NCBI RefSeq assembly: GCF_001945605.1
Contig: NZ_MPKA01000067.1
Coordinates: forward strand, 60,001 to 92,000
Origin: Dubosiella newyorkensis
Lineage (GTDB): Bacteria > Bacillota_I > Bacilli_A > Erysipelotrichales > Erysipelotrichaceae
Reading direction: 5' to 3'
DNA length: 32,000 nt
Part shown: positions 614-13,554 of the stretch, in pieces
Layout of the letters: each line of letters opens with the position of its first letter
How positions within the stretch are numbered: position 1 is the stretch's first letter
Made by a program: the position numbers and the translations under genes
The notes under the pieces: generated by a model
The model's input: the letters and a program-made list of their open reading frames with translations, nothing else
Told to the model about the DNA's origin: nothing
Database searches by the model: none

Positions 614-639
614 AAAAAAAGCTAGTCGATCGACTAGCT
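614..639 (-). terminator. Rho-independent terminator of the mtl-like operon
   Basis: Perfect 20-bp palindrome AGCTAGTCGATCGACTAGCT (620-639) containing the dehydrogenase stop codon. It is followed on the minus strand by a T7 run. Confidence 0.8.
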
Positions 640-1884
640 AAAATGCTCCAACAACATTTTTTCGGCCTCGCTGGACCACAATCCTTTATTCGCTTTGCAT
701 ACCGCATCCAATTCCTTAAAGAACGGATCGCTTTCTCCAAGCTTTCCAAAATCCTCGATCGCAGTCATCGGCATATTGATATGCGTGTAGACCAGCTTTT
801 TTCCACCCGGGACATTTGGAAGATCCTTCGTCGTTTCAACGACCGAATCGAGTCCTCCAACATGCGTGATCATGACCGCCGAATTGATCAGACCCGCGTT
901 GTTTTTGTCGATCGCCTCTTTCATATCATCGATCGTTCCACCGGTGCTGCCAATGATCTTGCTGCGCGAATAATGACAATCGTACAAATTGACGTTGGCA
1001 GAGAATTTAGGATCCGTCGGCCCCGCGAACAAATTCATGCATCCATCATAGGCCATGATCTGGTTACCGATCTCGCAAACCCCTTGATTCGGAATATACA
1101 CGAACACATCGTCGTAGCCTTTCCCTTCGCTCAGTTCCATAAGCCCTTTGACTTGGTCGTCCATTTTCGAAGTATTGACATAAATCAGCTCGACTCCATG
1201 TTCTTTCGCCTCTTCTTCCGAAATGACTTCCCGCGCCCGCTCGATCCTTTCATCGTTGATCTCCGTAACAACGATTCGCTTCGGCTTGTTTTCATACGTC
1301 AATCCATACGAGATCGCGCCTAGTCCCATCGGGCCGCATCCACCAAGAATGATTAGATTTCCATCTTTTTTCGTTCCCATGATGTGCTGATATCCTCCAG
1401 GCTTTGTATGATAATTCGTATGATAACCACCAATACAGCACGATACTGGCTCAGCCACCGAACTTGCGAAATAAGAATCGCCATCAAACGTCCAGACACA
1501 ACCAGCCTCTAAAATATCGTTTGGAAAAATACAATATTCTGTATCGCCCCCGCACCATTCATATGAATACCCTGGCGACTCCATTTGGCCAGGAATGGCG
1601 GGCTGCTGCGCGAACTTTTGGCCCGGCTTGAACGTGTCCTGCCACTTTTTCCCTACTTTCACGATATCTCCCGCAAATTCGTGACCGATGATGATCGGAT
1701 GCTCTTTGACATCGTTAGGCACACGCTTATGCTTTTCCCCTTGCTTGACCGTTTTCCAAGTCGACATGCAAATCGAATCGGAAACGACCTTGACTAAAAT
1801 TTCATCGTCCTTGATTTCAGGAAGCTCAAATGTATCGAGGCGAATATCATCCACCCCATATAAACGGACTGCTCTAGTTTTCAT
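634..1884 (-). CDS. Zinc-dependent medium-chain dehydrogenase, L-sorbose-1-phosphate reductase (SorE)-like
   Basis: 416-aa ORF. It has the MDR zinc-ADH signatures (SDSICMSTWK Cys, GHEFAGDIVKVG) and a Rossmann GGCGPMGLG motif. Length and layout resemble ~410-aa SorE-type ketose-1-phosphate reductases. SD GAGAGGG; start lies 5 bp after the fruK-like stop. Confidence 0.7.
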   Translation of the reverse strand: MKTRAVRLYGVDDIRLDTFELPEIKDDEILVKVVSDSICMSTWKTVKQGEKHKRVPNDVKEHPIIIGHEFAGDIVKVGKKWQDTFKPGQKFAQQPAIPGQMESPGYSYEWCGGDTEYCIFPNDILEAGCVWTFDGDSYFASSVAEPVSCCIGGYHTNYHTKPGGYQHIMGTKKDGNLIILGGCGPMGLGAISYGLTYENKPKRIVVTEINDERIERAREVISEEEAKEHGVELIYVNTSKMDDQVKGLMELSEGKGYDDVFVYIPNQGVCEIGNQIMAYDGCMNLFAGPTDPKFSANVNLYDCHYSRSKIIGSTGGTIDDMKEAIDKNNAGLINSAVMITHVGGLDSVVETTKDLPNVPGGKKLVYTHINMPMTAIEDFGKLGESDPFFKELDAVCKANKGLWSSEAEKMLLEHFS

Positions 1885-1889
1885 TTCGA

Positions 1890-2825
1890 TTACCCTCTCA
1901 TTCTTTCTATTTGTACAAGATCCTTCAGATCTTCGATCACTTCAAGCCTCGCGGGCTGCGTGCCCTCAGTCGTGCAAGCGCCCGCGCTTGTTGCCATGCA
2001 TAGGATCGCCAGCTCTTCTAAAGAAAGCTTATTTTCCAATCCAAGCGCCATCGCCGCCACCATCGCATCGCCCGCGCCCACGCTCGATTTCAAATCGATC
2101 GGCAACACAGGACAATACAAGAAAGCTTCTTCGCTTAAAAACAGCGCGCCTTCGCCCCCCATGCTGATGACGACAAGACGTGTTTGATCATTCAACAACT
2201 TTTCGCCAAGCATAACTGTATCTTCTAAACTTTCCGGCTCTCTCACCCCAAAATATTGAGCCAGCTCAAAGCGGTTTGGCTTGATCGCGTATGGCTTAGC
2301 CTGGATCCCTTCCTTGAAAAGCTCTCCATCCGCATCGAGAAGCACCCGGATCCCGCTTTCCCTGAGTGAAGCGATCATCTCTTTATAGATCTTATTTTCT
2401 ACGCCTGGCGATACGTTGCCCGACAAGACCACATACGAAGAAGGATCAGCTTTCTTCTTGATCAGCTCGACTAGCGCTTGCACATCCTCCATCTCTACAT
2501 AAGGTCCCGGCTCATTGAGTTCGGTCAATTCCATCTTGGCATTGAGCACCTTCAAATTCGTCCGGGTGTTTCCCTCGACCCACACAAATTCATTCTCGAT
2601 GCCAAGATGATCCAAACTATCTTCGATGACGCGTCCGCTCGAACCTGCTAAAAATCCAGTCGCAAAGCTATTCGAGCCAAGCGCTAACAGCGTTTTCGAA
2701 ACATTCACTCCCTTGCCGCCCGCGTCTTGTCGCACATCGCGCAGCCGATTCAGACCTCCGACCACAAGTGTATCCACAAGAGCGGTCTTATCGATCGCTG
2801 GATTGAACGTGACCGTGACGATCAT
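1890..2825 (-). CDS. fruK: 1-phosphofructokinase / PfkB-family ketohexose-phosphate kinase
   Basis: 311 aa. N-terminus MIVTVTFNPAIDKT...GGKGVNVS and C-terminal GAGDAMVAA are typical of FruK/LacC-type PfkB kinases. The start overlaps the mtlF stop (ATGA). Confidence 0.8.
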   Translation of the reverse strand: MIVTVTFNPAIDKTALVDTLVVGGLNRLRDVRQDAGGKGVNVSKTLLALGSNSFATGFLAGSSGRVIEDSLDHLGIENEFVWVEGNTRTNLKVLNAKMELTELNEPGPYVEMEDVQALVELIKKKADPSSYVVLSGNVSPGVENKIYKEMIASLRESGIRVLLDADGELFKEGIQAKPYAIKPNRFELAQYFGVREPESLEDTVMLGEKLLNDQTRLVVISMGGEGALFLSEEAFLYCPVLPIDLKSSVGAGDAMVAAMALGLENKLSLEELAILCMATSAGACTTEGTQPARLEVIEDLKDLVQIERMRG

Positions 2826-3286
2826 GCTGCTTCTCCTGTAAGAACACGATAGATCAAGTCTGGATCGCCTTGGACCACTTGCTCTACGACATCCATATCG
2901 CCTAGCTTTTCCGCGATATTTTGAAGGATCGCTACATGCTCGTCAGTCGTTGCGGCGATTCCGATCACGATGCGTACAGTTCCGCCACCCCACGCGATCC
3001 CTTCCGGATAAATATCGACCGCAAGCCCCGTCTTTTTGACATAATCTTTGACTTCATATTCGCCATGGGGAATGGCGATATCGTTTCCAATATAGGTCGT
3101 CAAAGAATGATCGCGGTTGAGCATTCCTTGAATATAAGGCTCTTCAATATAGCCAGCGTTGCGCAAGACCGTTCCGATCGAGACGATCGCCGAGTCACTG
3201 CTGTCGGCTTTTTGATTCACGCGGATATTTTCGATTTTTAAGATTTGCGGTTTCTCTTCTTTTTTCTTTCTTTTAAATAGTGCCAT
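2822..3286 (-). CDS. mtlF: PTS EIIA component, mannitol/fructose type (PTS_EIIA_2)
   Basis: 154 aa. Contains the phosphorylatable His motif GNDIAIPHG. Sits inside the mtlA-mtlR operon. Confidence 0.85.
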   Translation of the reverse strand: MALFKRKKKEEKPQILKIENIRVNQKADSSDSAIVSIGTVLRNAGYIEEPYIQGMLNRDHSLTTYIGNDIAIPHGEYEVKDYVKKTGLAVDIYPEGIAWGGGTVRIVIGIAATTDEHVAILQNIAEKLGDMDVVEQVVQGDPDLIYRVLTGEAA

Positions 3287-3306
3287 GTTTTTTTCCTTTT
3301 CTCTTT

Positions 3307-5349
3307 CTATGCGAAGGATTCTGTCTGAAGCATTTCCAAATACAAATTGGACAGCACGGAGACGATCCTTCTTTCCTCTTGAGCCAAGACCGCTTGTTTC
3401 AGTTCGGTTGACTCCATCATATTGATCGTGATCAAAGACAGAAGCTTTTGTTCATACATTGCATGCGCCTTAGGCAACAATAAGACAACGACAGCCTCGA
3501 TCTTAGGATACTTTGTGAATTTTCCTTCTTTTGGCCAAATAAATTGCGCTTGCGCGCTCTTGACGCCTTCGCTTGTGGCGTGAAGCAAGCCAAAATGGAG
3601 CTCATCTATGAACAAAGAGCCGATCTCTTCTCTTTTTTTGAGGGCCTCCTCGATCATGGACTGGTTTCCGAGCGCTAACACACTGGCTTCTCCGATCATA
3701 TCTTCCACCGAAGCGTCTGGATCGATGTGAGCGAACACTAAATTGTTCAAGATCCCCAACATTTGCTGGCTGCATTGCTGGATCGAAGCGATCTTTTGTT
3801 GGTGATCGACGCTTTGATCCGCTGATCGCGCGATCGGCAGATCCGCTATGATTTCACGAATCGTGTCGATATCTTGCGCGGAGAGGAGCGGATTGACCTT
3901 GATTACCGGCAAACGAGTCGATTGAAGCTCGAAAGTCGTGATGATCAAATCGAGCCCTTCAAAATCTTGTTGATAATATTGTTCTAAAGAGAGTGTCTTA
4001 AATTTGATGCGATTTTGAAATACCGACTGTAGGCGAGCGACCAGCAAGGCCGAAACGCCGACCCCAGAAGCGCACACGACTCCGGCTTGGACCTTTGTTC
4101 GACGGGCTTCGATCCGCCTTCTCTCTAGGCTGGCGCCAATGTGCATCGTCATAAAACCAATTTCTGCCTCAGAGATCGACAAATCGATCTTCGCTTCTAA
4201 TTTTTTAGCGGCTTTTTTTGTGTCCGCATACAAGCTCGGGTATTGTTCTTGGATCTTCTCAAGAAGCGGATTATAGATCGGAAGCGCATATTGAAGGCGG
4301 ATAAGCGTTGGCTGCAAATGCGTGATGAAGCCTTGCATGAATTGAGGATCCATTTTGAGCGAAGAGCGGATCGGCAAAGGCAGCTGCTCGATCAAAAAGA
4401 AAGCGAGCTCATCGATTTGTTTATTATCATTCGTATTTTGTGGATTGGCGCTTTTGGAGCCCAGCAAATGCATGGCGATAAAAGTCGTCTCGGCTTGCGG
4501 GATCTGGATCAAAAACGTCTCCTCGAGCTTTTGGCTGATCTTTTGGGCTTGTTCCATCGCTGAAGTCTTGGCGATCGAAGCATAGAGCGCAGGATCGGAA
4601 ACGATCTCTTCTCCTTTTTGGATACGCTCGATGGCTACGACAAGATGAATGATCAAGCCAATGTAGGCGCTTTGGGCGTATTGATCGAGATGCAGCGTTT
4701 TATATTCGTTCGTAAACAGATCCAAGACTTCATCAAGGATCGTTTGGTTCAAAAGCTTCAAGATCCCTTCGTTGCTGGAGGCGAAAATTTCTTTTTGCAG
4801 CGCTTGCGGATCTAAGGAGTCGACATCGTTTTGAAAGTTTTCAAGTGTATTATGAACGATGGCGCTCATCGCCCTCCGCCTATTTTCTTCGCTCCCAAGA
4901 ACTTGAATCTTATTTTTATGGGTGCGATCGAGCTTTAGATCGTATCGAGCCAAAAGCGGCTCGATCGCTTCTAGATCTTTCGAAACCGTCGTTTCCGAGA
5001 CTTCAAATAGATTTCCATAATAGACGAGCTTCTTCACTTCAGGAAAGCGGAGCAGCTCGAAGGCGAGATACTTCTGCCGTTCCTCTTTATGAAAGTAAGG
5101 GATCGATTCAGCCTCTAGATCATCAAGAAGAGCTCGCTTATCTTCCTCTTTTCCTTCTAGGCGGATCCCTTTCCCCGCTTTGCTTGCAAGAGAAAGACGA
5201 TAGCGCTTGAGATCGACATTCTGCAATTCACGAAAGATCGTCCTCCTCGAAGTTTTGAGACGTTTCGCCAAAGCATCGATCGAAACATAGTCTGGATCCT
5301 GTTCTAAGCAGATCTTCAAGATTTGCTTGAACCGATTGGAATACAGCAT
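3307..5349 (-). CDS. mtlR: MtlR-type PRD-containing transcriptional activator (HTH-Mga-PRD-PRD-EIIB(Gat)-like-EIIA(Mtl)-like)
   Basis: 680 aa. N-terminal HTH (DALAKRLKTSRRTIFRELQ), an EIIB-like Cys motif (GVVCASGVGVSALLVARL) and a C-terminal EIIA-like segment (HFGLLHATSEG). Position between mtlA and mtlF matches Firmicute mtl operons. Confidence 0.85.
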   Translation of the reverse strand: MLYSNRFKQILKICLEQDPDYVSIDALAKRLKTSRRTIFRELQNVDLKRYRLSLASKAGKGIRLEGKEEDKRALLDDLEAESIPYFHKEERQKYLAFELLRFPEVKKLVYYGNLFEVSETTVSKDLEAIEPLLARYDLKLDRTHKNKIQVLGSEENRRRAMSAIVHNTLENFQNDVDSLDPQALQKEIFASSNEGILKLLNQTILDEVLDLFTNEYKTLHLDQYAQSAYIGLIIHLVVAIERIQKGEEIVSDPALYASIAKTSAMEQAQKISQKLEETFLIQIPQAETTFIAMHLLGSKSANPQNTNDNKQIDELAFFLIEQLPLPIRSSLKMDPQFMQGFITHLQPTLIRLQYALPIYNPLLEKIQEQYPSLYADTKKAAKKLEAKIDLSISEAEIGFMTMHIGASLERRRIEARRTKVQAGVVCASGVGVSALLVARLQSVFQNRIKFKTLSLEQYYQQDFEGLDLIITTFELQSTRLPVIKVNPLLSAQDIDTIREIIADLPIARSADQSVDHQQKIASIQQCSQQMLGILNNLVFAHIDPDASVEDMIGEASVLALGNQSMIEEALKKREEIGSLFIDELHFGLLHATSEGVKSAQAQFIWPKEGKFTKYPKIEAVVVLLLPKAHAMYEQKLLSLITINMMESTELKQAVLAQEERRIVSVLSNLYLEMLQTESFA

Positions 5350-5355
5350 TTTCCC

Positions 5356-6729
5356 TTAAGCTCCACAAAGATCATGCACGATCTGATCGTATTCGCTGCT
5401 GGCCATAAAGTTTTGGATCGGATAGATCTTCGCTTGCGGGCAGCGCGCTTTCGCTCGTTCGACAAGCGAGTTCTGGGTCACGATGATTTGCGTGTCGAGA
5501 GGCACTTCATTTAACGCGGAATGTGGCACTGTGATATCGATGCCCGCCGCTTTGAGTTTTTTCGTCAAGTTGGCGGCTCCCATCGCGCTCGAGCCCATGC
5601 CTGCATCGCATGCGAAGACGATCTTGAGATCGGCTGGCACGAAAGAGGAAGCTGCAGGAGCGAGTCCTTTGGAGGCTTGCTTGCTGGCGTTCACTTTCGC
5701 TTGAGCTTCTTGTAAGTTGCCTTCTTTCGCAAACACTTTCAACAAGATGGCGTTGACTGCAAACGAGACAGCAGCAGCCACAAGGATCGAAAGCAAGATG
5801 CCTAGATAACTGTCTTTCGCGCACATGCCAAGAATAGCGATGATCGAGCCTGGCGAAGCGGCCGAGACCAATCCAGAGTGGAAGAGCGTGTTGATGAAGA
5901 CACCGCTCATGCCTCCGAGAATGACTCCGACCAAAGTGATCGGATTCATGAGCACGAATGGAAAATAGATTTCATGAATACCACCGAAAAATTCGATGAT
6001 CATCGCCGAAAGCGACGATTCTTTGACTTCTCCTTTTCCAAAAAAGAAATACGCGAGCAACAAACCTAAGCCCGGTCCCGGGTTGGCTTCGATCATAAAG
6101 AAGATCGATTTTCCTGTTTCTTGGACTTGTTCCATGCCAAGAGGAGTAAAGATGCCGTGATTGAGGGCATTGTTCAAAAACAAGATCTTGGCTGGCTCGA
6201 CTAAGATCGAAGTCAAAGGAAGCAATGAATGCTCTACAAGCCAATTGACACCGTACGAAAGAGCCGAAGTGATCGCCACACAAGCGGGCTCGATCAATAG
6301 ACAGCCAACGCAGGCGAGTATCGCGCCAAGGATGCCGGCTGAAAAGTTGTTGACGAGCATTTCGAATCCACTTGGGATGTGTCCATCCAAGAGGGTGTCG
6401 ACTTTTTTCATCAAATAGCCGCCGAGAGGTCCGGCGATCATGGCGCCGATAAACATCGGTGTTTCCGTTCCGGCGATGATCCCGATCGCAAAACACGCGC
6501 CAATAATACCGCCTCGATGTTCATAGATCATCTTTCCGCCAGAGTAGGCGATCAAGAGCGGAAGCAAAAAGCGTTGCATCGGAGCGACGATTTCGTTGAG
6601 GGTCGGATTTGGAAGCCATCCTTTTGGAATAAAAAGAGCGGTGATCAAACCCCAAGCGATAAAAATAGAAATGTTGGGCATGACCATGCTCGATAGAGCG
6701 CGGCCAAATTTTTGAACTTTTTCTTTCAT
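5356..6729 (-). CDS. mtlA: PTS mannitol-family EIICB permease
   Basis: 457 aa. Polytopic N-terminal EIIC (MKEKVQKFGRALSSMVMPNISIFIAWG...) and C-terminal EIIB with the active Cys motif IVFACDAGMGSSAMGA. Confidence 0.9.
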   Translation of the reverse strand: MKEKVQKFGRALSSMVMPNISIFIAWGLITALFIPKGWLPNPTLNEIVAPMQRFLLPLLIAYSGGKMIYEHRGGIIGACFAIGIIAGTETPMFIGAMIAGPLGGYLMKKVDTLLDGHIPSGFEMLVNNFSAGILGAILACVGCLLIEPACVAITSALSYGVNWLVEHSLLPLTSILVEPAKILFLNNALNHGIFTPLGMEQVQETGKSIFFMIEANPGPGLGLLLAYFFFGKGEVKESSLSAMIIEFFGGIHEIYFPFVLMNPITLVGVILGGMSGVFINTLFHSGLVSAASPGSIIAILGMCAKDSYLGILLSILVAAAVSFAVNAILLKVFAKEGNLQEAQAKVNASKQASKGLAPAASSFVPADLKIVFACDAGMGSSAMGAANLTKKLKAAGIDITVPHSALNEVPLDTQIIVTQNSLVERAKARCPQAKIYPIQNFMASSEYDQIVHDLCGA

Positions 6730-7623: not shown

Positions 7624-8688
7624 ATGGAACAAAATACGCAAACAAAATTTATTACAATTGGAGAGATCTTATTAAGATTGAGTCCTCCTAATTATGGAAA
7701 GATCATCGTAAGCAATATGTTCGAGGCCAATTATGGAGGGAGCGAAGCCAATATCGCGCTTGCTTTATCGAACCTTGGTGTGGACAGCACCTTCTTTTCG
7801 ATCGTTCCCGACAACCCGCTAGGCAAGGCGGCCATCCGCATGCTTCGAAGCAACGATGTCCATTGCACTCCGGTCATCCTTTCTACAGAAGAAGAGACCC
7901 CTAGCCATCGACTAGGCACCTACTATTTAGAAACAGGATATGGGATCCGTCCAAGCAAGGTCACGTACGATCGCAAACATAGCGCGATCAGCGAATTCGA
8001 CTTTTCTAAGATCGATCTCGACGCGCTTCTCGATGGTTTTGACTGGCTCCATTTGAGCGGCATCACGCCTGCCCTCTCGAACAACTGCGCTCAATTTATT
8101 TTGGATTGCCTAAAAAAAGCGAAAGAGAAAGGCATTATCGTCAGCTTTGATGGCAACTTCCGCGCCACGTTGTGGACCTGGGAAGAAGCGCGCGATTTTT
8201 GTACGCGATGCCTTCCGTATGTCGATGTTCTCTTAGGCATCGAACCGTATCATTTATGGAAAGAAGAAGGAGATCCTTCCAAAGGCGATTGGAAAGACGA
8301 TATTCCTTATCAGCCTTCGTTAGAAGAACAAGAAGCGATCTTCCAACGTTTCATAGAACGCTATCCAAATCTGAAATGCATCGCCCGCCATGTTCGGACC
8401 GCCCATACGGTCAGCGAAAACAGCTTGAAGGCGTATATGTGGCAAGAAGGAAAAACGTTCGAAAGCAAATCGTTCCGTTTCCATATTTTAGATCGAGTCG
8501 GAGGTGGGGACGCGTTCGCGAGCGGATTAATCTACGCGATGATCCACCAGTTCCCGCTTCAAGAACAAATCGATTTTGCGGTAGCAAGCAGCGTGCTCAA
8601 ACATACGATCCATGGCGATGGAAATTTGATCGACGACGAGCAGCTCATCAAAAACCTCATCGAAATGAATTACGATATCAAACGTTAG
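7624..8688 (+). CDS. kdgK: PfkB-family sugar kinase, 2-dehydro-3-deoxygluconokinase-like
   Basis: 354 aa. N-terminus ITIGEILLRLSPPNYGKI...NYGGSEANIALALSNLG and C-terminal GGGDAFASGLIYA match the KdgK pattern. There is no obvious SD before the ATG. Confidence 0.7.
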   Translation: MEQNTQTKFITIGEILLRLSPPNYGKIIVSNMFEANYGGSEANIALALSNLGVDSTFFSIVPDNPLGKAAIRMLRSNDVHCTPVILSTEEETPSHRLGTYYLETGYGIRPSKVTYDRKHSAISEFDFSKIDLDALLDGFDWLHLSGITPALSNNCAQFILDCLKKAKEKGIIVSFDGNFRATLWTWEEARDFCTRCLPYVDVLLGIEPYHLWKEEGDPSKGDWKDDIPYQPSLEEQEAIFQRFIERYPNLKCIARHVRTAHTVSENSLKAYMWQEGKTFESKSFRFHILDRVGGGDAFASGLIYAMIHQFPLQEQIDFAVASSVLKHTIHGDGNLIDDEQLIKNLIEMNYDIKR

Positions 8689-8720
8689 AAGACAGGCTTG
8701 TTCAACCTGTCTTCTTTTCA
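8687..8720 (+). terminator. Terminator between convergent kdgK and ogt
   Basis: AGAAGACAGG / CCTGTCTTCT 10-bp stem with a 9-nt loop, followed by TTTT on the plus strand. The ogt stop codon lies in the loop. Confidence 0.7.
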
Positions 8721-9178
8721 TGTTCTAAAAGACGCTTTTTATTTTGGATCCCGCCAGCATATCCGGAAAGCGAGCCATCCGACTTAACAACACGATGGCA
8801 CGGGATGACGATCATAAAAGGATTTTTAGAGATCGCTTGCCCTACCGCTTGCGATGAAGAAGGCGCTCGATTCATTTTGAGCGCGATCTTTTTATAGCTT
8901 GTCACCGTATTATAAGGAATCATTAACAGCTCTTTCCACACTTCCTGCTGAAAAGGCGTTCCATATTTCCAAGAAAGACGAGGCGTGAAATTAGGCTTAT
9001 GTCCGGCAAAATAGAGATCGAGCCATCGAATGATCCCGCCAAAACAAGTCCGATCTTCCTCTTCAATAAAATCAGACGTCTCGATAAAACGGATACGGAT
9101 CAAGGCGCCATTTTCGCTTTCCAGCAAGAGATCGGAAAATGGATCTGGAGTCTTGTAGATGTGTATTTTTTTCACCAT
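8702..9178 (-). CDS. ogt: Methylated-DNA--protein-cysteine methyltransferase
   Basis: Active-site motif IPCHRVV. I chose the internal start MVKKIHIYK (ATG 9178) rather than the ORF-track start at 9244, which lies inside the upstream glycyl radical enzyme gene. Confidence 0.85.
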   Translation of the reverse strand: MVKKIHIYKTPDPFSDLLLESENGALIRIRFIETSDFIEEEDRTCFGGIIRWLDLYFAGHKPNFTPRLSWKYGTPFQQEVWKELLMIPYNTVTSYKKIALKMNRAPSSSQAVGQAISKNPFMIVIPCHRVVKSDGSLSGYAGGIQNKKRLLEHEKKTG

Positions 9179-11577
9179 TGATTTTCCGTACGAGCAATGA
9201 TCGCATCTTGGGCTTCGGGCATGAGCGATACGAACTGAGCGCAATATCCAGCGACCCGAACGATCAGATCTTGATGCTGTTGAGGATATTTTTGCGCTTC
9301 TTTGAGCAGCTGTGAAGAATGGATATTGAATTGGTTATGATAGATCCCCTTCTGTTGGCTGACACGCAAAAACGCAAGAAAGCGTTCAAGATTCTCTTCG
9401 CCCTCTAGCGATTCAAAGGCAAAGCGCATATTCAAGAGCTGGCCAGCCGCCACTTTCGAATTTGGAAGCCTAGAAACCGAATTGATCACAGCACCCGGTC
9501 CATTTCGATCCGTTCCTTGCACAGGAGAACAGCCTTCATTGAGCGGGGCTCTTGCTTCTCGTCCATCGGGTGTGGCGCCCACATCAAGTCCATTCGGGAC
9601 ATACGAGGTGATGTTGCTTGTAGACATCGTATACGCGCTGATCTTCGGCCCTTTTCCTGTTCTTAGGCTCGTATAGTGCGGCAAAAGCTTTAAATACGAT
9701 TCGAATACATCGCTAACGATCTGATCGACATACACTTCGTCGTTGCCAAATTTTGGAGCCGCCAACAAAAGTTTCTGGATCCGTTTCGAGGAAGCGGATT
9801 TCCAATTGTCCTCCATCGCCTGGATCATCTCGTTCCAAGAAACGACCTTTTCTTCAAAGACTTTTTGTTTGATGGCGGCCAACGAGTTGCCCACCACGCA
9901 CGGTCCAATGTTGGATTGGGAAATGATATCGTACTTGCATCCTCCTTCTTTGAGCGTTTTTTGCAGTTCGAAGGAGTTGGCGATCAAACAAGAGGCGAGC
10001 AGATCGGCATCGTAGATTTCCAAAGAGGCGTCGCAGATCTTATCGCACTCTACCGCAAGATCTGAATAAAACCGGAGCGCCATTTCCCACGCTTCCCACA
10101 CTTGTTCATACGTTTCATAGTTTTCTTTCAAAGACAAAAGCTGAATGCCTGTTTGTGGATCTTTGCCATGGTAGAGCACGATTTCGAGCACCTTTCCCCA
10201 GTTCACATACGTCATTCCGGTAGCCCGGTGTCCATATTTTCCAGGCACCCCTGTTTCTACACAACCGATCGGACAATAATCATAGGCGTCTTCTCGATCT
10301 ACGCCAAGATCAAGCAAGCCTTTGATCGCGACTTCGTCATTGAACAAGGATGGCATTCCACAGCCTGTGCGGATCAAAAGAGCGGCGCGCTCTAAAAGAG
10401 GCTTGGGAGTACGGGCGTGATAGCGCATCGAAAAGTTAGGCTCGGCCAAACGAGTCTGATGCATCGCTTCCATGCATAAGTACGAAAGGAGATTGGTGCC
10501 GTCGCTTCCATCTTTTTTAAGACCGCCGACCACGAGGTTGGAATAGAGCGGATAGCCTTGTGAAAAGCGCGTATGGCCATACGGGCGTACTTTGTTATTG
10601 ATGGAGCACAACAAGAAAAAGTGAGTGATGAGTTCGAGCGCCTTATCTTGATTAAGTGTTCCTCGTTTTAGATCCTCCGTATAATACGGTTCCATATATT
10701 GGTCGAATCTTCCAAAACAAAACGAATGTCCATTAGATTCGATCATTTGCAAGACATGAAGCATATACACGCTTTCGATCGCTTCGTAAAACGATCTCGC
10801 CTTGCCTCGAAGCATCGTACGAGCGATATGAGCCATGTGTTCCAGTTCTTTTTTACGGATTGGATCCGCTTCTAGGTTTGCCATATCTTCAAGAAGGCAT
10901 GCGTACCGTTCACAAAAGGCGAGGCTGGCTGTTAAGACGATCTCGACGGCTTGATCATACGGATCCTTCTGGATTTTTTGACGTTTTTTCGCTCTCTCGA
11001 TCAGTCCCAAAAGCCCTTTTTCTAACAACATTTCATGATCGATCACGATATGTCCATCGCCGGACATAGAAATCCCCCCTAAATGAAGGGTGCCTTGTTT
11101 AGCGGCCTGCCGGATCGTGTCGCTTAGATGGGCTTGAACTTGATCTTGATGGGTCTTTCCTTTCCAATAAGGTTCGATGGCGTAGAGCGCTTTTTTTGTC
11201 GCTTCATCGCATTCAAATCGGTCGCCAGTCCTTTGTTCGAATGGAGTGGCTCCGTTTCTTCCATCGAGCTCGTCAATGACCCATTCGATCGAGTATTCTG
11301 GAAAGATCGGCGCCGCAAAGCTCTTAGAGGCTTGGTTGCCAAAAAACAAGCTGTCTGGCTCGATGTAAAGATCCATATGTTCTAGGGTGTAGGCGAATGC
11401 TTTGGCTTTCCTTACGATGTACGGTTCGCCCTCGCTTTCTTGAAAGCTTTGCGTATAGAAGACGGCTCGCTGAGAACAAAGACTCGCCTGTCGTTTGGTG
11501 AGTCTTTGTCGGATCGTATCGATCCTTTCCCAGTTGATCGTAGAATCTACGGCCGTGTAGTTTAAAAAGCGAGTCAT
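9172..11577 (-). CDS. Glycyl radical enzyme, PFL2/eliminase (dehydratase-like) clade, substrate unknown
   Basis: C-terminal glycyl radical loop DLIVRVAGYCAQF. Thiyl loop IGCVETG has a single Cys with Glu at +2, not the CC motif of pyruvate formate-lyase. I chose start MTRFLNYT (ATG 11577), one base after the aldolase stop; the ORF-track start at 11616 would overlap that gene. Confidence 0.85.
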   Translation of the reverse strand: MTRFLNYTAVDSTINWERIDTIRQRLTKRQASLCSQRAVFYTQSFQESEGEPYIVRKAKAFAYTLEHMDLYIEPDSLFFGNQASKSFAAPIFPEYSIEWVIDELDGRNGATPFEQRTGDRFECDEATKKALYAIEPYWKGKTHQDQVQAHLSDTIRQAAKQGTLHLGGISMSGDGHIVIDHEMLLEKGLLGLIERAKKRQKIQKDPYDQAVEIVLTASLAFCERYACLLEDMANLEADPIRKKELEHMAHIARTMLRGKARSFYEAIESVYMLHVLQMIESNGHSFCFGRFDQYMEPYYTEDLKRGTLNQDKALELITHFFLLCSINNKVRPYGHTRFSQGYPLYSNLVVGGLKKDGSDGTNLLSYLCMEAMHQTRLAEPNFSMRYHARTPKPLLERAALLIRTGCGMPSLFNDEVAIKGLLDLGVDREDAYDYCPIGCVETGVPGKYGHRATGMTYVNWGKVLEIVLYHGKDPQTGIQLLSLKENYETYEQVWEAWEMALRFYSDLAVECDKICDASLEIYDADLLASCLIANSFELQKTLKEGGCKYDIISQSNIGPCVVGNSLAAIKQKVFEEKVVSWNEMIQAMEDNWKSASSKRIQKLLLAAPKFGNDEVYVDQIVSDVFESYLKLLPHYTSLRTGKGPKISAYTMSTSNITSYVPNGLDVGATPDGREARAPLNEGCSPVQGTDRNGPGAVINSVSRLPNSKVAAGQLLNMRFAFESLEGEENLERFLAFLRVSQQKGIYHNQFNIHSSQLLKEAQKYPQQHQDLIVRVAGYCAQFVSLMPEAQDAIIARTENQW

Positions 11578-11578
11578 T

Positions 11579-12286
11579 TTAAAGTCCAAGAACGACTGGC
11601 ACTGAGCGATATCCAACGCCCATGCGATCGATGCCCATATCGATCAATTTGAAGAAGTGTTCTTGGGTGCGGATACATCCGGAACCTTTGATCTTGATCT
11701 CATCGCCTGCTTCATCCATCATGATCTGGATGACTTCTGGAGTTGCCCCATGTGCTTCATGGCCAGTTAAAAAGCCTGTGCTCGTTTTGACGAAATCGAC
11801 GCCGGCTTCTTTGCATATAGAAACCATCTTGCGGATCTGTTCTTCGTTGAGCGCGTCGGTTTCAAAGATCACTTTGATTTCACGTCCATATTTATGAGCG
11901 GCTTGAGCGCATTCTTTCAGATCCGCTAGCACTTCATCATAAAGGCCAGAGCGGATCTTGCCAAAGTTGGCAACGATATCGACTTCTTTGACCGTATCGT
12001 ATTTAGCGACTTCTTCGATTTGTTCGACGCGGCTTTTGGTCGAGCTTGCGCCAAATGGAAAATCGGTGACAGGACAAAGCATCGTCTTGCTTCCTTTTAC
12101 ATAAGGTTCTAAGAGTTCCATATAGGCTGGGTTGATGCAGATCGTCGCGCAGCCAAGCTTGACGCCATCTTTTGTCAAGTCGATGATCTCTTCTTCGGTA
12201 AATTCAGGTTTCAAGACAGAATAGTCAATATAAGAGGCGAGTTCCTCTGTGCTCATTTCACATGCTTTTTTGTTTGGGTGTTTCAT
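11579..12286 (-). CDS. deoC: Deoxyribose-phosphate aldolase (DERA/DeoC) family class I aldolase
   Basis: Start MKHPNKK at 12286 follows the strong SD TAGGAGGAAAG. Recognisable DERA blocks: IDYSVLKP, ICINP, EVDIV, KVIFET, the Schiff-base Lys block DFVKTSTGF, and IKGSGCIRT. Confidence 0.8.
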   Translation of the reverse strand: MKHPNKKACEMSTEELASYIDYSVLKPEFTEEEIIDLTKDGVKLGCATICINPAYMELLEPYVKGSKTMLCPVTDFPFGASSTKSRVEQIEEVAKYDTVKEVDIVANFGKIRSGLYDEVLADLKECAQAAHKYGREIKVIFETDALNEEQIRKMVSICKEAGVDFVKTSTGFLTGHEAHGATPEVIQIMMDEAGDEIKIKGSGCIRTQEHFFKLIDMGIDRMGVGYRSVPVVLGL

Positions 12287-12305
12287 AATCTTTCCTCCTA
12301 TTCTC

Positions 12306-12335
12306 ATCATACGCTCATGATCGAGGAGAAAACAA
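12306..12335 (-). promoter_or_regulatory. Candidate promoter of the deoC-GRE-ogt unit
   Basis: Minus strand TTGTTT-18 nt-TATGAT, between the upstream terminator and the AGGAGG SD of the deoC-like gene. Confidence 0.45.
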
Positions 12336-12361
12336 TAAAAAAAGAGCAATATATGCTCTTT
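12335..12361 (-). terminator. Terminator after the flavodiiron gene
   Basis: AAAGAGCA-TATAT-TGCTCTTT hairpin followed by a T-run on the minus strand. It separates the flavodiiron gene from the deoC-GRE unit. Confidence 0.8.
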
Positions 12362-12366
12362 TCTGC

Positions 12367-13554
12367 TCATTTCAGCAAAGATCCTACAAACGCAGGGACC
12401 TGTGCTAGATCGTCTTCTTGCATCGTCCAATTAACTTTGACTTCTTCATCGATCACATGAAAGCCAGCCTCGGTCAAGTATTTTTTTAAATGGGGCACGC
12501 TCTCTCCGCTCCATCCCCACGTTCCAAATGCGCCTGCTTTCTTGCCTTTGAACTTGAGCTGTTTTAAGAAAGCAAGCCATCCAGCTACGCTGGATAGAAT
12601 ATCGTTGCCTACGGTCGGCGATCCTAGCGCGATCGCTTTCGATTTTAAGATTTCTGTCATGATATCGTTTTTATCGGTCTTCGCGATATTGAATACTTTT
12701 ACGATTGTATTTGGCGATTGATGGGCAATTTCTTCTGCAATTTTATGCGCGATCTTTTCGGTGCCGTTCCACATCGTGTCGTAGACGATCGTCACTTGAT
12801 CTTCTTGATAGGCATTAGCCCATTCTGCGTATTTTTCAATGATTTGGGATGGCTCTTTACGCCAGATCGCGCCATGGCTTGGACAAATCATATCGATCGG
12901 CAAATGGAACGATTCAATTTCTTTCAGTTTGCGGATAAGCATTGGCGCGTATGGGTTTAAAATATTCGCATAATATTTCATCGCTTCTTTCATCATCACG
13001 CATCGATCGGCTTTGTCGTTAAAGAGTTCTTCGATCGCATAATGTTGTCCAAACGCGTCGTTTGAAAACAAGATATTGTCTTCTGTTAAGTAGGTCGCCA
13101 TAGAATCTGGCCAATGAAGCATCGGCATTTCAATAAAGATCAATTTTTTCCCATTGCCGATCTCCAGCGTATCTCCTGTTTTCACTACATGAAAATTCCA
13201 TCCTTTTTTGCCGTATTGTCCTTCAAGACTCTTGACAGCGTTCTTCGTACAATAAATCGGCGTGTCAGGGATTTTTTCCATCAGATCGCTCAGCGCGCCT
13301 GAATGATCGCATTCTCCATGGTTGGCGATGATATAATCGATAGAATGCAGATCGATTTCTTGTTCTAAGTTTTCAATAAAATCAAAGCGATGCGGGATCC
13401 ATACCGTATCGATCAATACTGTTTTTTCTTCTTGGATCAAATAGGCGTTTTGACTGGATCCATGCTCCACAGAATAATCGTCGCCATGAAAATGCTTTAG
13501 CTCCCAGTCAATATAGCCGATCCAGTAAACATTGTTTTTTACTTGTCGCTTCAT
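12367..13554 (-). CDS. Flavodiiron protein (FprA-type O2/NO reductase; metallo-beta-lactamase fold plus flavodoxin domain)
   Basis: 395 aa. Di-iron ligand motif ANHGECDHSG, and a C-terminal flavodoxin-like segment (IALGSPTVGND...). SD GAAAGGA. Confidence 0.85.
   Translation of the reverse strand: MKRQVKNNVYWIGYIDWELKHFHGDDYSVEHGSSQNAYLIQEEKTVLIDTVWIPHRFDFIENLEQEIDLHSIDYIIANHGECDHSGALSDLMEKIPDTPIYCTKNAVKSLEGQYGKKGWNFHVVKTGDTLEIGNGKKLIFIEMPMLHWPDSMATYLTEDNILFSNDAFGQHYAIEELFNDKADRCVMMKEAMKYYANILNPYAPMLIRKLKEIESFHLPIDMICPSHGAIWRKEPSQIIEKYAEWANAYQEDQVTIVYDTMWNGTEKIAHKIAEEIAHQSPNTIVKVFNIAKTDKNDIMTEILKSKAIALGSPTVGNDILSSVAGWLAFLKQLKFKGKKAGAFGTWGWSGESVPHLKKYLTEAGFHVIDEEVKVNWTMQEDDLAQVPAFVGSLLK

Follow-up and report, generated by a model that had tools for sequence, protein, structure and literature searches.

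Introduction

What reaction would be catalyzed by an oxygen-sensitive glycyl radical enzyme (GRE) whose gene begins one nucleotide behind that of a 2-deoxyribose-5-phosphate aldolase (DERA)? The question is raised by Dubosiella newyorkensis, a mouse-gut anaerobe of the family Erysipelotrichaceae, in a 32-kb stretch of contig NZ_MPKA01000067.1 (positions 60,001 to 92,000; hereafter the window). The minus strand of the window carries a gene for a DERA-family class I aldolase of 235 aa, here called deoC* (11579-12286; ATG at 12286, TAA at 11581-11579), which is followed by the gene of a GRE of 801 aa (9172-11577; ATG at 11577). At the junction, CTTTAAAATGACT, the TAA of deoC* is separated by a single A from the ATG of the GRE gene, as the original prediction for this DNA had stated. 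We give an even chance to the reading that this pair is the catalytic core of an uncharacterized anaerobic pathway, which would follow the “radical glycolysis” plan of YbiW/PflD and FsaA/B with a DERA-type aldolase.

In that plan, YbiW cleaves the ring C–O bond of 1,5-anhydroglucitol-6-phosphate and PflD that of 1,5-anhydromannitol-6-phosphate, and the product, 1-deoxyfructose-6-phosphate, is split by the aldolases FsaA/B into glyceraldehyde-3-phosphate (G3P) and hydroxyacetone (PMC13450708; PMC12441222). The work (Ma et al., JACS 2024, ‘radical-mediated glycolysis’) is cited here as summarized in these two sources. The original prediction had regarded ybiW-fsaA as a partial precedent only, which undervalues it: both GREs were characterized in 2024 as anhydro-hexitol-6-phosphate C–O lyases feeding FsaA/B (PMC13450708; PMC12441222). 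Cleavage of sugar phosphates by a GRE plus an aldolase has thus been known since 2024, and the DERA-paired clade described below is a clearly delimited variant of that concept. A review of GREs from June 2026 counts six C–O eliminases and three isomerases, none acting on a polyol phosphate and none paired with a DERA, and names YbiW and PflD as the only sugar-phosphate GREs (PMC13450708). No DERA-coupled GRE was found in the literature searched, which leaves out most subscription journals; as far as this literature shows, such enzymes are undescribed, as had been supposed, and the DERA-coupled clade is uncharacterized.

A GRE Clade Related to YbiW

The GRE was identified with Pfam (PFL-like, PF02901, 2e-175; Gly_radical, PF01228, 1e-24), with the NCBIfam model TIGR01774 (704.5 bits against a cut-off of 678.2), by a PDB search and in trees. 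The glycyl radical loop RVAGY occupies residues 774-778 (Gly777; 9244-9258, minus strand), and the single-Cys thiyl loop GCVE residues 438-441 (Cys439, Glu441; 10255-10266, minus strand), the latter aligning with C441/E443 of YbiW and C433/E435 of glycerol dehydratase. Both loops, with the Glu at +2, had been read correctly from the sequence. However, the placement in an eliminase clade that had been drawn from them stands only in part: the CXE pattern is present, but it is common to the isomerase class, and the closest characterized relative is an isomerase-type lyase.

Among solved structures, the GRE matches 8ID7, 8YJN, and 6XS4 (E. coli YbiW and a close homologue; 570 bits), 1R8W (Clostridium butyricum glycerol dehydratase; 462 bits), and 8ID0 and 8YJO (PflD; about 435 bits). 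Global identity is 37% to YbiW and 35% to both PflD and glycerol dehydratase. With the only specific NCBIfam model, PRK09983, it scores 524 bits against a cut-off of 1109; judged by these sequence comparisons, it is outside the YbiW/PflD isofunctional families at the level of orthology.

A protein search returned more than 4,500 GRE relatives at E ≤ 1e-50, the best 120 of which were all at least 61% identical to the window GRE. Its matches include, at 99% identity, a glycyl radical protein that NCBI assigns to D. newyorkensis. For phylogeny, 115 related GREs were gathered from one genome-collection scan, one metagenome scan, and contig look-ups, and removal of near-identical sequences left 70 for trees and counts. 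The contigs and loci of this survey bear labels such as L001; many of those from the metagenome scan are labelled human-gut metagenome. Trees were built by neighbour-joining, and a second, bootstrapped tree also included glycerol dehydratase. The window GRE belongs to a clade of 43 members, called D (56-67% identical to it; bootstrap 100). Bootstrapping favors clade F (53-56% identical to the window GRE; 88/100) as the sister of D, and clade A, of Anaerolineae and allies (51-53%), branches just outside. Together with the YbiW clade, D, F, and A form a superclade with a bootstrap of 100, from which glycerol dehydratase and PflD are excluded; glycerol dehydratase groups with L020. The GRE clusters neither with HypD or CutC nor with glycerol dehydratase. 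Tight clustering with an enzyme of unrelated substrate, which would have refuted the original prediction, is thus not seen, and the nearest characterized relative in the tree is the distant E. coli YbiW. Since this superclade includes a sugar-phosphate GRE, a sugar-phosphate substrate is the natural expectation for clade D. Moreover, YbiW-like GREs with fructose-6-phosphate aldolase (FSA)-type aldolases are present in the same bacterial groups as D-clade GREs, and even in the same locus (L018, L088), which argues that clade D is a paralogue with a role of its own.

The radical machinery is preserved throughout the clade: the GCVE loop is found in 43/43 members and RVAGY in 40/43, the other three being truncated or misassembled extractions. 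In addition, purifying selection on the Dubosiella GRE gene is seen in its comparison with that of metagenome contig L042, which gives 41 synonymous and 11 non-synonymous codon differences. Glycerol dehydratase H164, H281, S282, Y339, C433, and E435 all have conserved equivalents throughout the D, F, A, and YbiW clades. The D447 of that enzyme aligns with Gly454 (HMMER) or Ala452 (MAFFT), that is, with Gly/Ala as in YbiW; D447 and Y640 map differently in the two alignments, and only residues that agree in both were used. At 20 positions, the residue fixed in clade D differs from those fixed in clade F and in YbiW-like enzymes. Several of these positions border on active-site motifs (Q277 and C287 around ESNGHS, Q340 in SQGYPLY) or lie near motifs (G443, Y448, and W460 after the Cys loop; S647; Q687), although these are differences in primary sequence and no proof of a different pocket. 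A search for candidate phosphate ligands gave three basic residues, H335, K543, and R732, that are conserved in the YbiW superclade and not in glycerol dehydratase; no conclusion is drawn from them.

DeoC*, A Distinct DERA Subfamily

The aldolase is a DERA by family, as had been predicted from its hallmarks. DeoC* scores 174.5 bits on the NCBIfam equivalog TIGR00126 (deoC; cut-off 117.3), its nearest solved structures are bona fide DERAs (E 3.5e-38), and it contains the motifs EVDIV (residues 101-105), DFVKTSTGF (residues 164-172; 11771-11797, minus strand), which in the alignment holds the Schiff-base Lys equivalent to E. coli K167, and IKGSGCIR (residues 199-206). All DERA catalytic residues are kept, namely the equivalents of E. 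coli D16, C47, D102, K137, K167, K201, and R207.

Nevertheless, DeoC* differs from canonical DERAs. Its identity is 28% with E. coli DeoC and 35% with the Lactobacillus brevis DERA. Locus L002 encodes a canonical DERA at a distance of 9 kb from a DeoC* of its own, and with this canonical enzyme the window DeoC* shares 29% identity; the two types coexist in L103 as well. Alignment with the E. coli, L. brevis, and canonical Erysipelotrichaceae DERAs places a subfamily-specific insertion of four residues after the Schiff-base block, within LTGHEAHG (11747-11770, minus strand). In the same way, MGVGYRS (11603-11623, minus strand) stands in place of the canonical phosphate-site motif G-(A/T/V)-S-(S/A) (E. 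coli G236-S239). The resulting pattern G-x-G-Y-(R/K)-S is conserved in 14/15 aligned DeoC* sequences, the exception being L031 with a Cys for Arg/Lys, and is missing from all three canonical DERAs aligned; SVLKPEFT and DFPFG are further signatures. On the strength of these alignments, the window DeoC is a member of a separate DERA subfamily. DeoC* is 77-85% identical to proteins of Lachnospiraceae, Oscillospiraceae, Veillonellaceae, and Sphaerochaetaceae, whereas GREs encoded near DeoC* share only 56-67% identity with that of the window; such high conservation across phyla suggests either strong constraint or frequent transfer.

In E. coli K-12, the canonical deoC has yjjI, annotated only as DUF3029, for its divergent neighbor (L041 1-2103; 4615515-4618102). 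YjjI is a putative GRE-like protein with its own activase, YjjW, and this would be a second, unrelated case of a DERA gene beside one of the glycyl-radical type.

Conservation of the DeoC*–GRE Pairing

The original prediction would have been refuted had the adjacency of the two genes not recurred in relatives; it does recur. When all loci were searched by tblastn and scored on the 70 non-redundant GREs, DeoC* lay within 10 kb of 29/43 D-clade GREs and of 0/27 other GREs (Fisher p = 2e-9, a test that overstates independence, the sampled loci being phylogenetically related). Directly adjacent same-strand pairs number 15. Of the 14 D-clade loci without DeoC*, 10 have less than 3 kb of flank on one side. 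The pairing is found in several phyla, in Erysipelotrichaceae, Lachnospiraceae, and Negativicutes, among others.

DeoC* and D-clade GRE genes are combined in no fewer than five gene orders, a variety that favors selection over inheritance of one arrangement. The simplest is DeoC*-GRE (the window, L001 of Floccifex, L033 of Absicoccus), which is extended by an activase (AE) to DeoC*-GRE-AE in L002, L008, L023, L097, and L101. DeoC* is divergent from DeoR-GRE in L065, L078, and relatives, and convergent toward GRE-AE, with GntR, in L046 and L066. Longer arrangements are GntR, DeoC*-TAL-DUF218-PTS IIABCD-GRE-AE-DeoR in L029 of Lacrimispora (TAL, transaldolase; PTS, phosphotransferase system), GntR-DeoC*-PTS IIABCD-GRE-AE-GntR-DUF218 in L034, GRE-PTS IIABCD-AE-DeoC*-TAL-TktN-TktC in L088, and DeoC*-ABC permease-binding protein-ATPase-PfkB-DUF1349-GRE-AE in L048 (ABC, ATP-binding cassette). 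The activase adjoins the GRE in 24/43 D-clade loci, and the complete loci carry, besides the activase, a mannose-class PTS or an ABC transporter with a PfkB kinase, and GntR/DeoR regulators. The ABC systems comprise a ribose-type transporter, RbsB-like binding proteins, and a fructokinase/IolC-like PfkB kinase. Two independent systems of uptake and phosphorylation thus point to a small, neutral, sugar-like compound as the substrate and to its phosphorylation ahead of the GRE reaction.

The aldolases beside the other clades are of a different kind. Beside F-clade and YbiW-like GREs, the TAL_FSA genes encode the residues typical of FSA, Gln59/Tyr131, in agreement with cleavage of a 1-deoxy-ketose phosphate. 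Those of the D-clade loci L029 and L088 encode Glu/Phe, the signature of transaldolases, and occur together with split transketolase genes; in L040, which has no GRE, DeoC* is followed by tktN/tktC.

Several other genes recur in these loci. An Erysipelotrichaceae sub-branch (L002 1722-9225, L008, L023, L105) has extra same-strand genes upstream of DeoC*-GRE-AE. They encode a DeoR regulator, a member of the OMPdecase family that resembles hexulose-phosphate synthase, a SIS-domain protein, and all components of a corrinoid methyltransferase set, namely two URO-D-like proteins, a CobW-like and a DUF1638-like protein (both assigned by eye), a B12-binding protein, and a RACo activator. For this sub-branch, a methylated sugar-like substrate is conceivable. 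DUF1349 stands beside a D-clade GRE or DeoC* in three dissimilar loci (L048 7151-7849, L037 3586-4197, L032 12534-13133), the L032 protein having a weak Pfam match to a concanavalin-A-like domain (GH43_C2), and DUF218 recurs in L029, L034, and L060. Cof-type HAD sugar phosphatases are encoded in seven D-clade loci (L060 3137-3970, L001, L002, L029, L078, L103, L120), which parallels E. coli ybiV (L035 4214-5029) beside ybiW; by this analogy, they may be a shared safeguard against build-up of phosphorylated substrate. A GH1 glycosidase, whose best family models are beta-glucosidase and 6-phospho-beta-galactosidase, is paired with some D-clade GREs (L026, L051 and relatives, the C. innocuum type; L060 4292-5653), where it either replaces DeoC* (DeoR-GH1-GRE-AE) or stands alongside it; in these loci the substrate may enter as a phosphorylated glycoside. 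Finally, several loci encode, within a few kb of a D- or F-clade GRE, another GRE that is only distantly related, with 24-40% identity to that of the window (L088 5577-7943, L048 12228-14531, L002 13852-15651, and L118), with an activase of its own nearby in two of the four. Loci with two GREs look like islands of radical sugar metabolism.

Proposed Pathway and Substrate

Starting from the observed gene identities, motifs, phylogenetic position, and conserved genomic coupling, we infer the substrate, the regiochemistry, and the use of the GRE product by DeoC*. Cleavage by a DERA requires an aldehyde whose C2 is an unsubstituted methylene, so that the GRE product would most simply be a 2-deoxy-aldose phosphate. 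In the pathway proposed, a neutral alditol or anhydro-alditol would be imported and phosphorylated on its terminal carbon, in the complete loci by the mannose-class PTS or by the ribose-type ABC transporter and PfkB kinase. In the activated GRE (in Dubosiella, the activase would come from outside the window), the thiyl radical of Cys439 would take a hydrogen from C1 of the substrate, Glu441 would deprotonate the C1 hydroxyl, and the ketyl radical would expel the C2 oxygen substituent, either as water from an alditol phosphate or as the ring ether oxygen from a 2,5-anhydro-alditol phosphate. Return of the hydrogen atom would then give a 2-deoxy-aldose phosphate. With its new aldehyde, the Lys of the KTSTGF block of DeoC* would form a Schiff base, and cleavage between C2 and C3 would yield acetaldehyde and an aldose phosphate. 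Such chemistry would amount to the regiochemistry of glycerol dehydratase on a YbiW-like scaffold. That D-clade GREs perform this radical C2–O cleavage of a phosphorylated alditol or 2,5-anhydro-alditol, with H-abstraction at C1 and a 2-deoxy-aldose phosphate as product, is a tentative proposal to which we give somewhat less than an even chance; the reaction would be new for GREs.

In the simplest case, which is that of the original prediction, D-ribitol-5-phosphate or D-arabinitol-5-phosphate would be converted to 2-deoxyribose-5-phosphate and then to acetaldehyde and G3P. This pentitol version is favored by the canonical DERA substrate on which DeoC* would then act, and by the RbsB-like binding proteins of the ABC systems. 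In line with this version, Lactobacillus casei reportedly takes up ribitol through a mannose-class PTS. Alternatively, a hexitol-6-phosphate or 2,5-anhydrohexitol-6-phosphate would give 2-deoxyhexose-6-phosphate, and from it acetaldehyde and erythrose-4-phosphate. This hexose-level version is favored by the remodelled phosphate-site motif of DeoC* and by the transaldolase/transketolase genes beside DeoC* in three loci. A pentitol-5-phosphate is chemically sound and the simplest reading, but as the specific substrate we regard it as doubtful.

Alternative Explanations

Several observations weigh against a DERA-coupled pathway. The most probable of the other explanations retains the chemistry of YbiW/PflD: the D-clade GRE would open a 1,5- or 1,4-anhydro-hexitol-6-phosphate, perhaps of another epimer, to a 1-deoxy-ketose phosphate, and DeoC* would replace FsaA/B. 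YbiW is, after all, the closest characterized relative, aldolases with the FSA residues Gln59/Tyr131 accompany the F and YbiW-like clades, and Cof-type HAD phosphatases lie near D-clade GREs as ybiV does beside ybiW. Furthermore, FSA-type genes also occur in clade D, in two loci only (L103 and L090), and the sister clade F is FSA-linked in 3/10 loci, so that the ancestral product may have been a 1-deoxy-ketose phosphate. With its phosphate-site motif remodelled, DeoC* need not have the canonical substrate either. However, the established donors of DERA-type enzymes are acetaldehyde, acetone, and propanal, and hydroxyacetone is not known to be one. DeoC* has the full DERA catalytic set and scores above the deoC equivalog cut-off; L103 encodes an FSA, a canonical DeoC, and DeoC* together, which argues against a simple substitution, and lineages that have D-clade GREs also have bona fide YbiW-like GREs paired with FSA. 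We therefore consider this explanation unlikely.

A second explanation denies any coupling in Dubosiella. DeoC* would be a housekeeping DERA of deoxynucleoside or deoxyribose catabolism, and the GRE would act on an unrelated substrate or be inactive without an activase. In three loci (L038, L039, L040), DeoC* homologues (77-85% identical) do occur with no GRE in the surrounding 9 kb; they stand alone, by transketolase genes, or by short-chain dehydrogenase and aldose-epimerase genes; in a fourth, L037, DeoC* lies behind an ABC transporter and a PfkB kinase, with only an activase gene at the locus edge and no GRE. DeoC* may hence be the ordinary DERA of these anaerobes, which weakens an inference from adjacency alone; an ordinary DERA would also fit 2-deoxyribose-5-phosphate as product. 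Conversely, four D-clade loci with full flanks have no DeoC* (the C. innocuum type DeoR-GH1-GRE-AE, L032, and L045), and in the related Firmicutes bacterium M10-2, GRE and DeoC* are at different loci. In the window, neither activase nor PTS nor dedicated regulator flanks the pair, and 8/32 adequately flanked D-clade loci have no activase nearby (Dubosiella, Floccifex, Absicoccus, and five others); according to the GRE review, activases are generally taken as specific to their own GRE (PMC13450708).

Yet the link with DeoC* is confined to clade D (29/43 against 0/27), where it has arisen anew in several gene orders and phyla. In Dubosiella, one nucleotide separates deoC* from a GRE gene that is under purifying selection with its radical motifs intact, and complete operons elsewhere hold DeoC*, transporter, GRE, and activase under one regulator. 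The absence of coupling thus appears decidedly improbable.

That the GRE is an ordinary glycerol or 1,2-propanediol dehydratase and the aldolase unrelated to it can be put aside as highly improbable: the CXE motif, the H164, H281, S282, and Y339 equivalents, and the rank of glycerol dehydratase as the next-best non-YbiW match in the PDB (462 bits) would agree with it, but glycerol dehydratase falls outside the D, F, A, and YbiW superclade (bootstrap 100), Gly or Ala aligns with D447, which is also the case in YbiW, genes for a microcompartment and for 1,3-propanediol or propanol dehydrogenase are absent, and the partner genes are sugar transporters and kinases.

The Dubosiella Locus

A DERA-coupled pathway, the reading that we prefer, would be represented in Dubosiella by a reduced locus. 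Its minus-strand genes are, in order, a flavodiiron gene, deoC*, the GRE gene, and ogt/MGMT. The flavodiiron (FprA/NorV-like) gene (12367-13554, minus strand; stop codon 12369-12367) is directly upstream of deoC* and is closed by a terminator-like hairpin and T-run (12338-12364, minus strand), for which a scan gives 11 pairs, a loop of 5, and a T-rich tail. The terminator that had been predicted before the pair is thus real, if A+T-rich (3 G-C of 11 pairs). The predicted promoter and ribosome-binding signals were likewise located. The element TTGTTT-18-TATGAT (12306-12335, minus strand; TTGTTT 12335-12330, TATGAT 12311-12306) was read from the sequence; its −35 is weak (3/6 consensus matches) and its −10 matches at 5/6, so that it fell below the threshold of the promoter scan and was not listed by it. 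By its sequence it is promoter-like, and not strong. A strong Shine-Dalgarno sequence, AGGAGG (12294-12299, minus strand), lies 7 nt 5′ of the deoC* ATG.

At the other end, the ogt/MGMT gene (8702-9178, minus strand), with a PCHRV active site and a Pfam match to DNA_binding_1 (1.6e-31), overlaps the stop of the GRE gene with its ATG by 7 nt (ATGGTGA), AATCAATGGTGA. This overlap makes deoC*-GRE-ogt the transcription unit; judging from its arrangement, ogt is probably co-transcribed and translationally coupled with the GRE gene. Elsewhere, the arrangement was found only in the near-identical metagenome contig L042.

Profile searches of the window proteins found no GRE-activating radical-SAM gene (Radical_SAM/Fer4_12) in the 32 kb. 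The original prediction had mentioned neither this absence nor the overlap with ogt. Similarly, the window contains no TAL_FSA gene and no PTS, dedicated transporter, or dedicated regulator beside the pair, and none of deoA, deoB, and deoD anywhere, the last point in keeping with the original prediction. The claim of a self-contained unit, however, does not hold: complete versions elsewhere add an activase, transport and kinase genes, and regulators, none of which is next to the Dubosiella pair, and ogt overlaps it. The Dubosiella copy is rather a stripped-down version of the complete loci, without an activase and without a dedicated transporter in the window.

Two neighbors were considered as parts of the pathway. 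A KDG-kinase-like PfkB gene (7624-8688, plus strand), which converges on ogt, was rejected as the pathway kinase; it is 25% identical to the PfkB beside a YbiW-like GRE (L017), has no tblastn match to the L037 or L048 kinases at the threshold used, and belongs to a different PfkB subgroup. Past it, the minus strand encodes a BlaI-like regulator and then a mannitol-class PTS operon (634-6729), 2.4 kb from the GRE operon, with genes for an EIICB (mtlA-like), an MtlR-like PRD regulator, an EIIA, a 1-phosphofructokinase, and a 416-aa Zn-dependent alcohol dehydrogenase. The operon has no mannitol-1-phosphate dehydrogenase, and its gene set suggests a route from a polyol phosphate through a ketose-1-phosphate to a ketose-1,6-bisphosphate. 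As a feeder of the GRE it is a weak lead only, being a separate transcription unit past an oppositely oriented kinase gene, and the relatives use a mannose-class PTS.

With 598 bits, the flavodiiron protein comes close to, but does not reach, the cut-off of 635 of NF008887, a model for NorV-like NO reductases. Nitric oxide is reported to inactivate GREs and their activases (preprint, bioRxiv 10.1101/2025.02.23.639758). This neighbor could be protective for the GRE; its own terminator separates its gene from the pair.

Comparison with Known Systems

The sugar-phosphate GREs described so far are two, both with FSA-type aldolases, and clade D adds a third, well-delimited and abundant clade. From the different aldolase partner, another class of product is predicted, and with it a regiochemistry new to GREs and a substrate, of dietary or host origin, that would likewise be new. 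If the proposal is true, a widespread, redox-neutral “deoxy-sugar” branch of radical glycolysis would exist in gut and sediment anaerobes, and with it the first nucleotide-independent enzymatic route to 2-deoxyribose-5-phosphate or 2-deoxyhexose-6-phosphate. Should the substrate be a common polyol or a food-additive anhydro-sugar, the view of how such compounds are fermented in the gut would change. Experimental handles are ready: cognate activases (L029, L034), a read-out of acetaldehyde through DeoC*, and two uptake systems that can guide the choice of substrates.

With YbiW/YbiY-FsaA and PflD/PflC-FsaB, the D-clade systems share a PFL-like GRE, a single-Cys CXE thiyl loop, and, in the case of YbiW, the superclade. 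In complete loci, the GRE is likewise accompanied by an activase, a PTS, and a class I aldolase, which would break its product down to central metabolites, and Cof-type HAD phosphatases occur near the GREs, as ybiV does near ybiW. However, the window GRE is about as far from each of these enzymes (37 and 35% identity) as YbiW is from PflD (38.6%). The D-clade partner is of the DERA type and not of the transaldolase/FSA type, which implies a 2-deoxy-aldose rather than a 1-deoxy-ketose product; uptake genes are those of a mannose-class PTS or, in its place, of an ABC transporter with a PfkB kinase, and the Dubosiella GRE has no adjacent activase.

The B12-independent glycerol/1,2-propanediol dehydratases resemble the D-clade GREs in the CXE motif and in the H164, H281, S282, and Y339 equivalents, and the proposed chemistry, with abstraction of a hydrogen at C1, loss of the C2 oxygen, and an aldehyde product, would be theirs. 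In contrast to them, the window GRE lies outside their clade and has lost the D447 equivalent, and the D-clade context is one of sugar-phosphate handling, not of microcompartments and diol fermentation. Similarly, DeoC* agrees with the DERAs of deoCABD and deoK-deoC in possessing all catalytic residues and in passing the TIGR00126 cut-off. It is set apart from them by the four-residue insertion after KTSTGF, by G-x-G-Y-(R/K)-S where they have G-x-S-S/A, and, in the window, by a gene neighborhood with no link to deoA/B/D.

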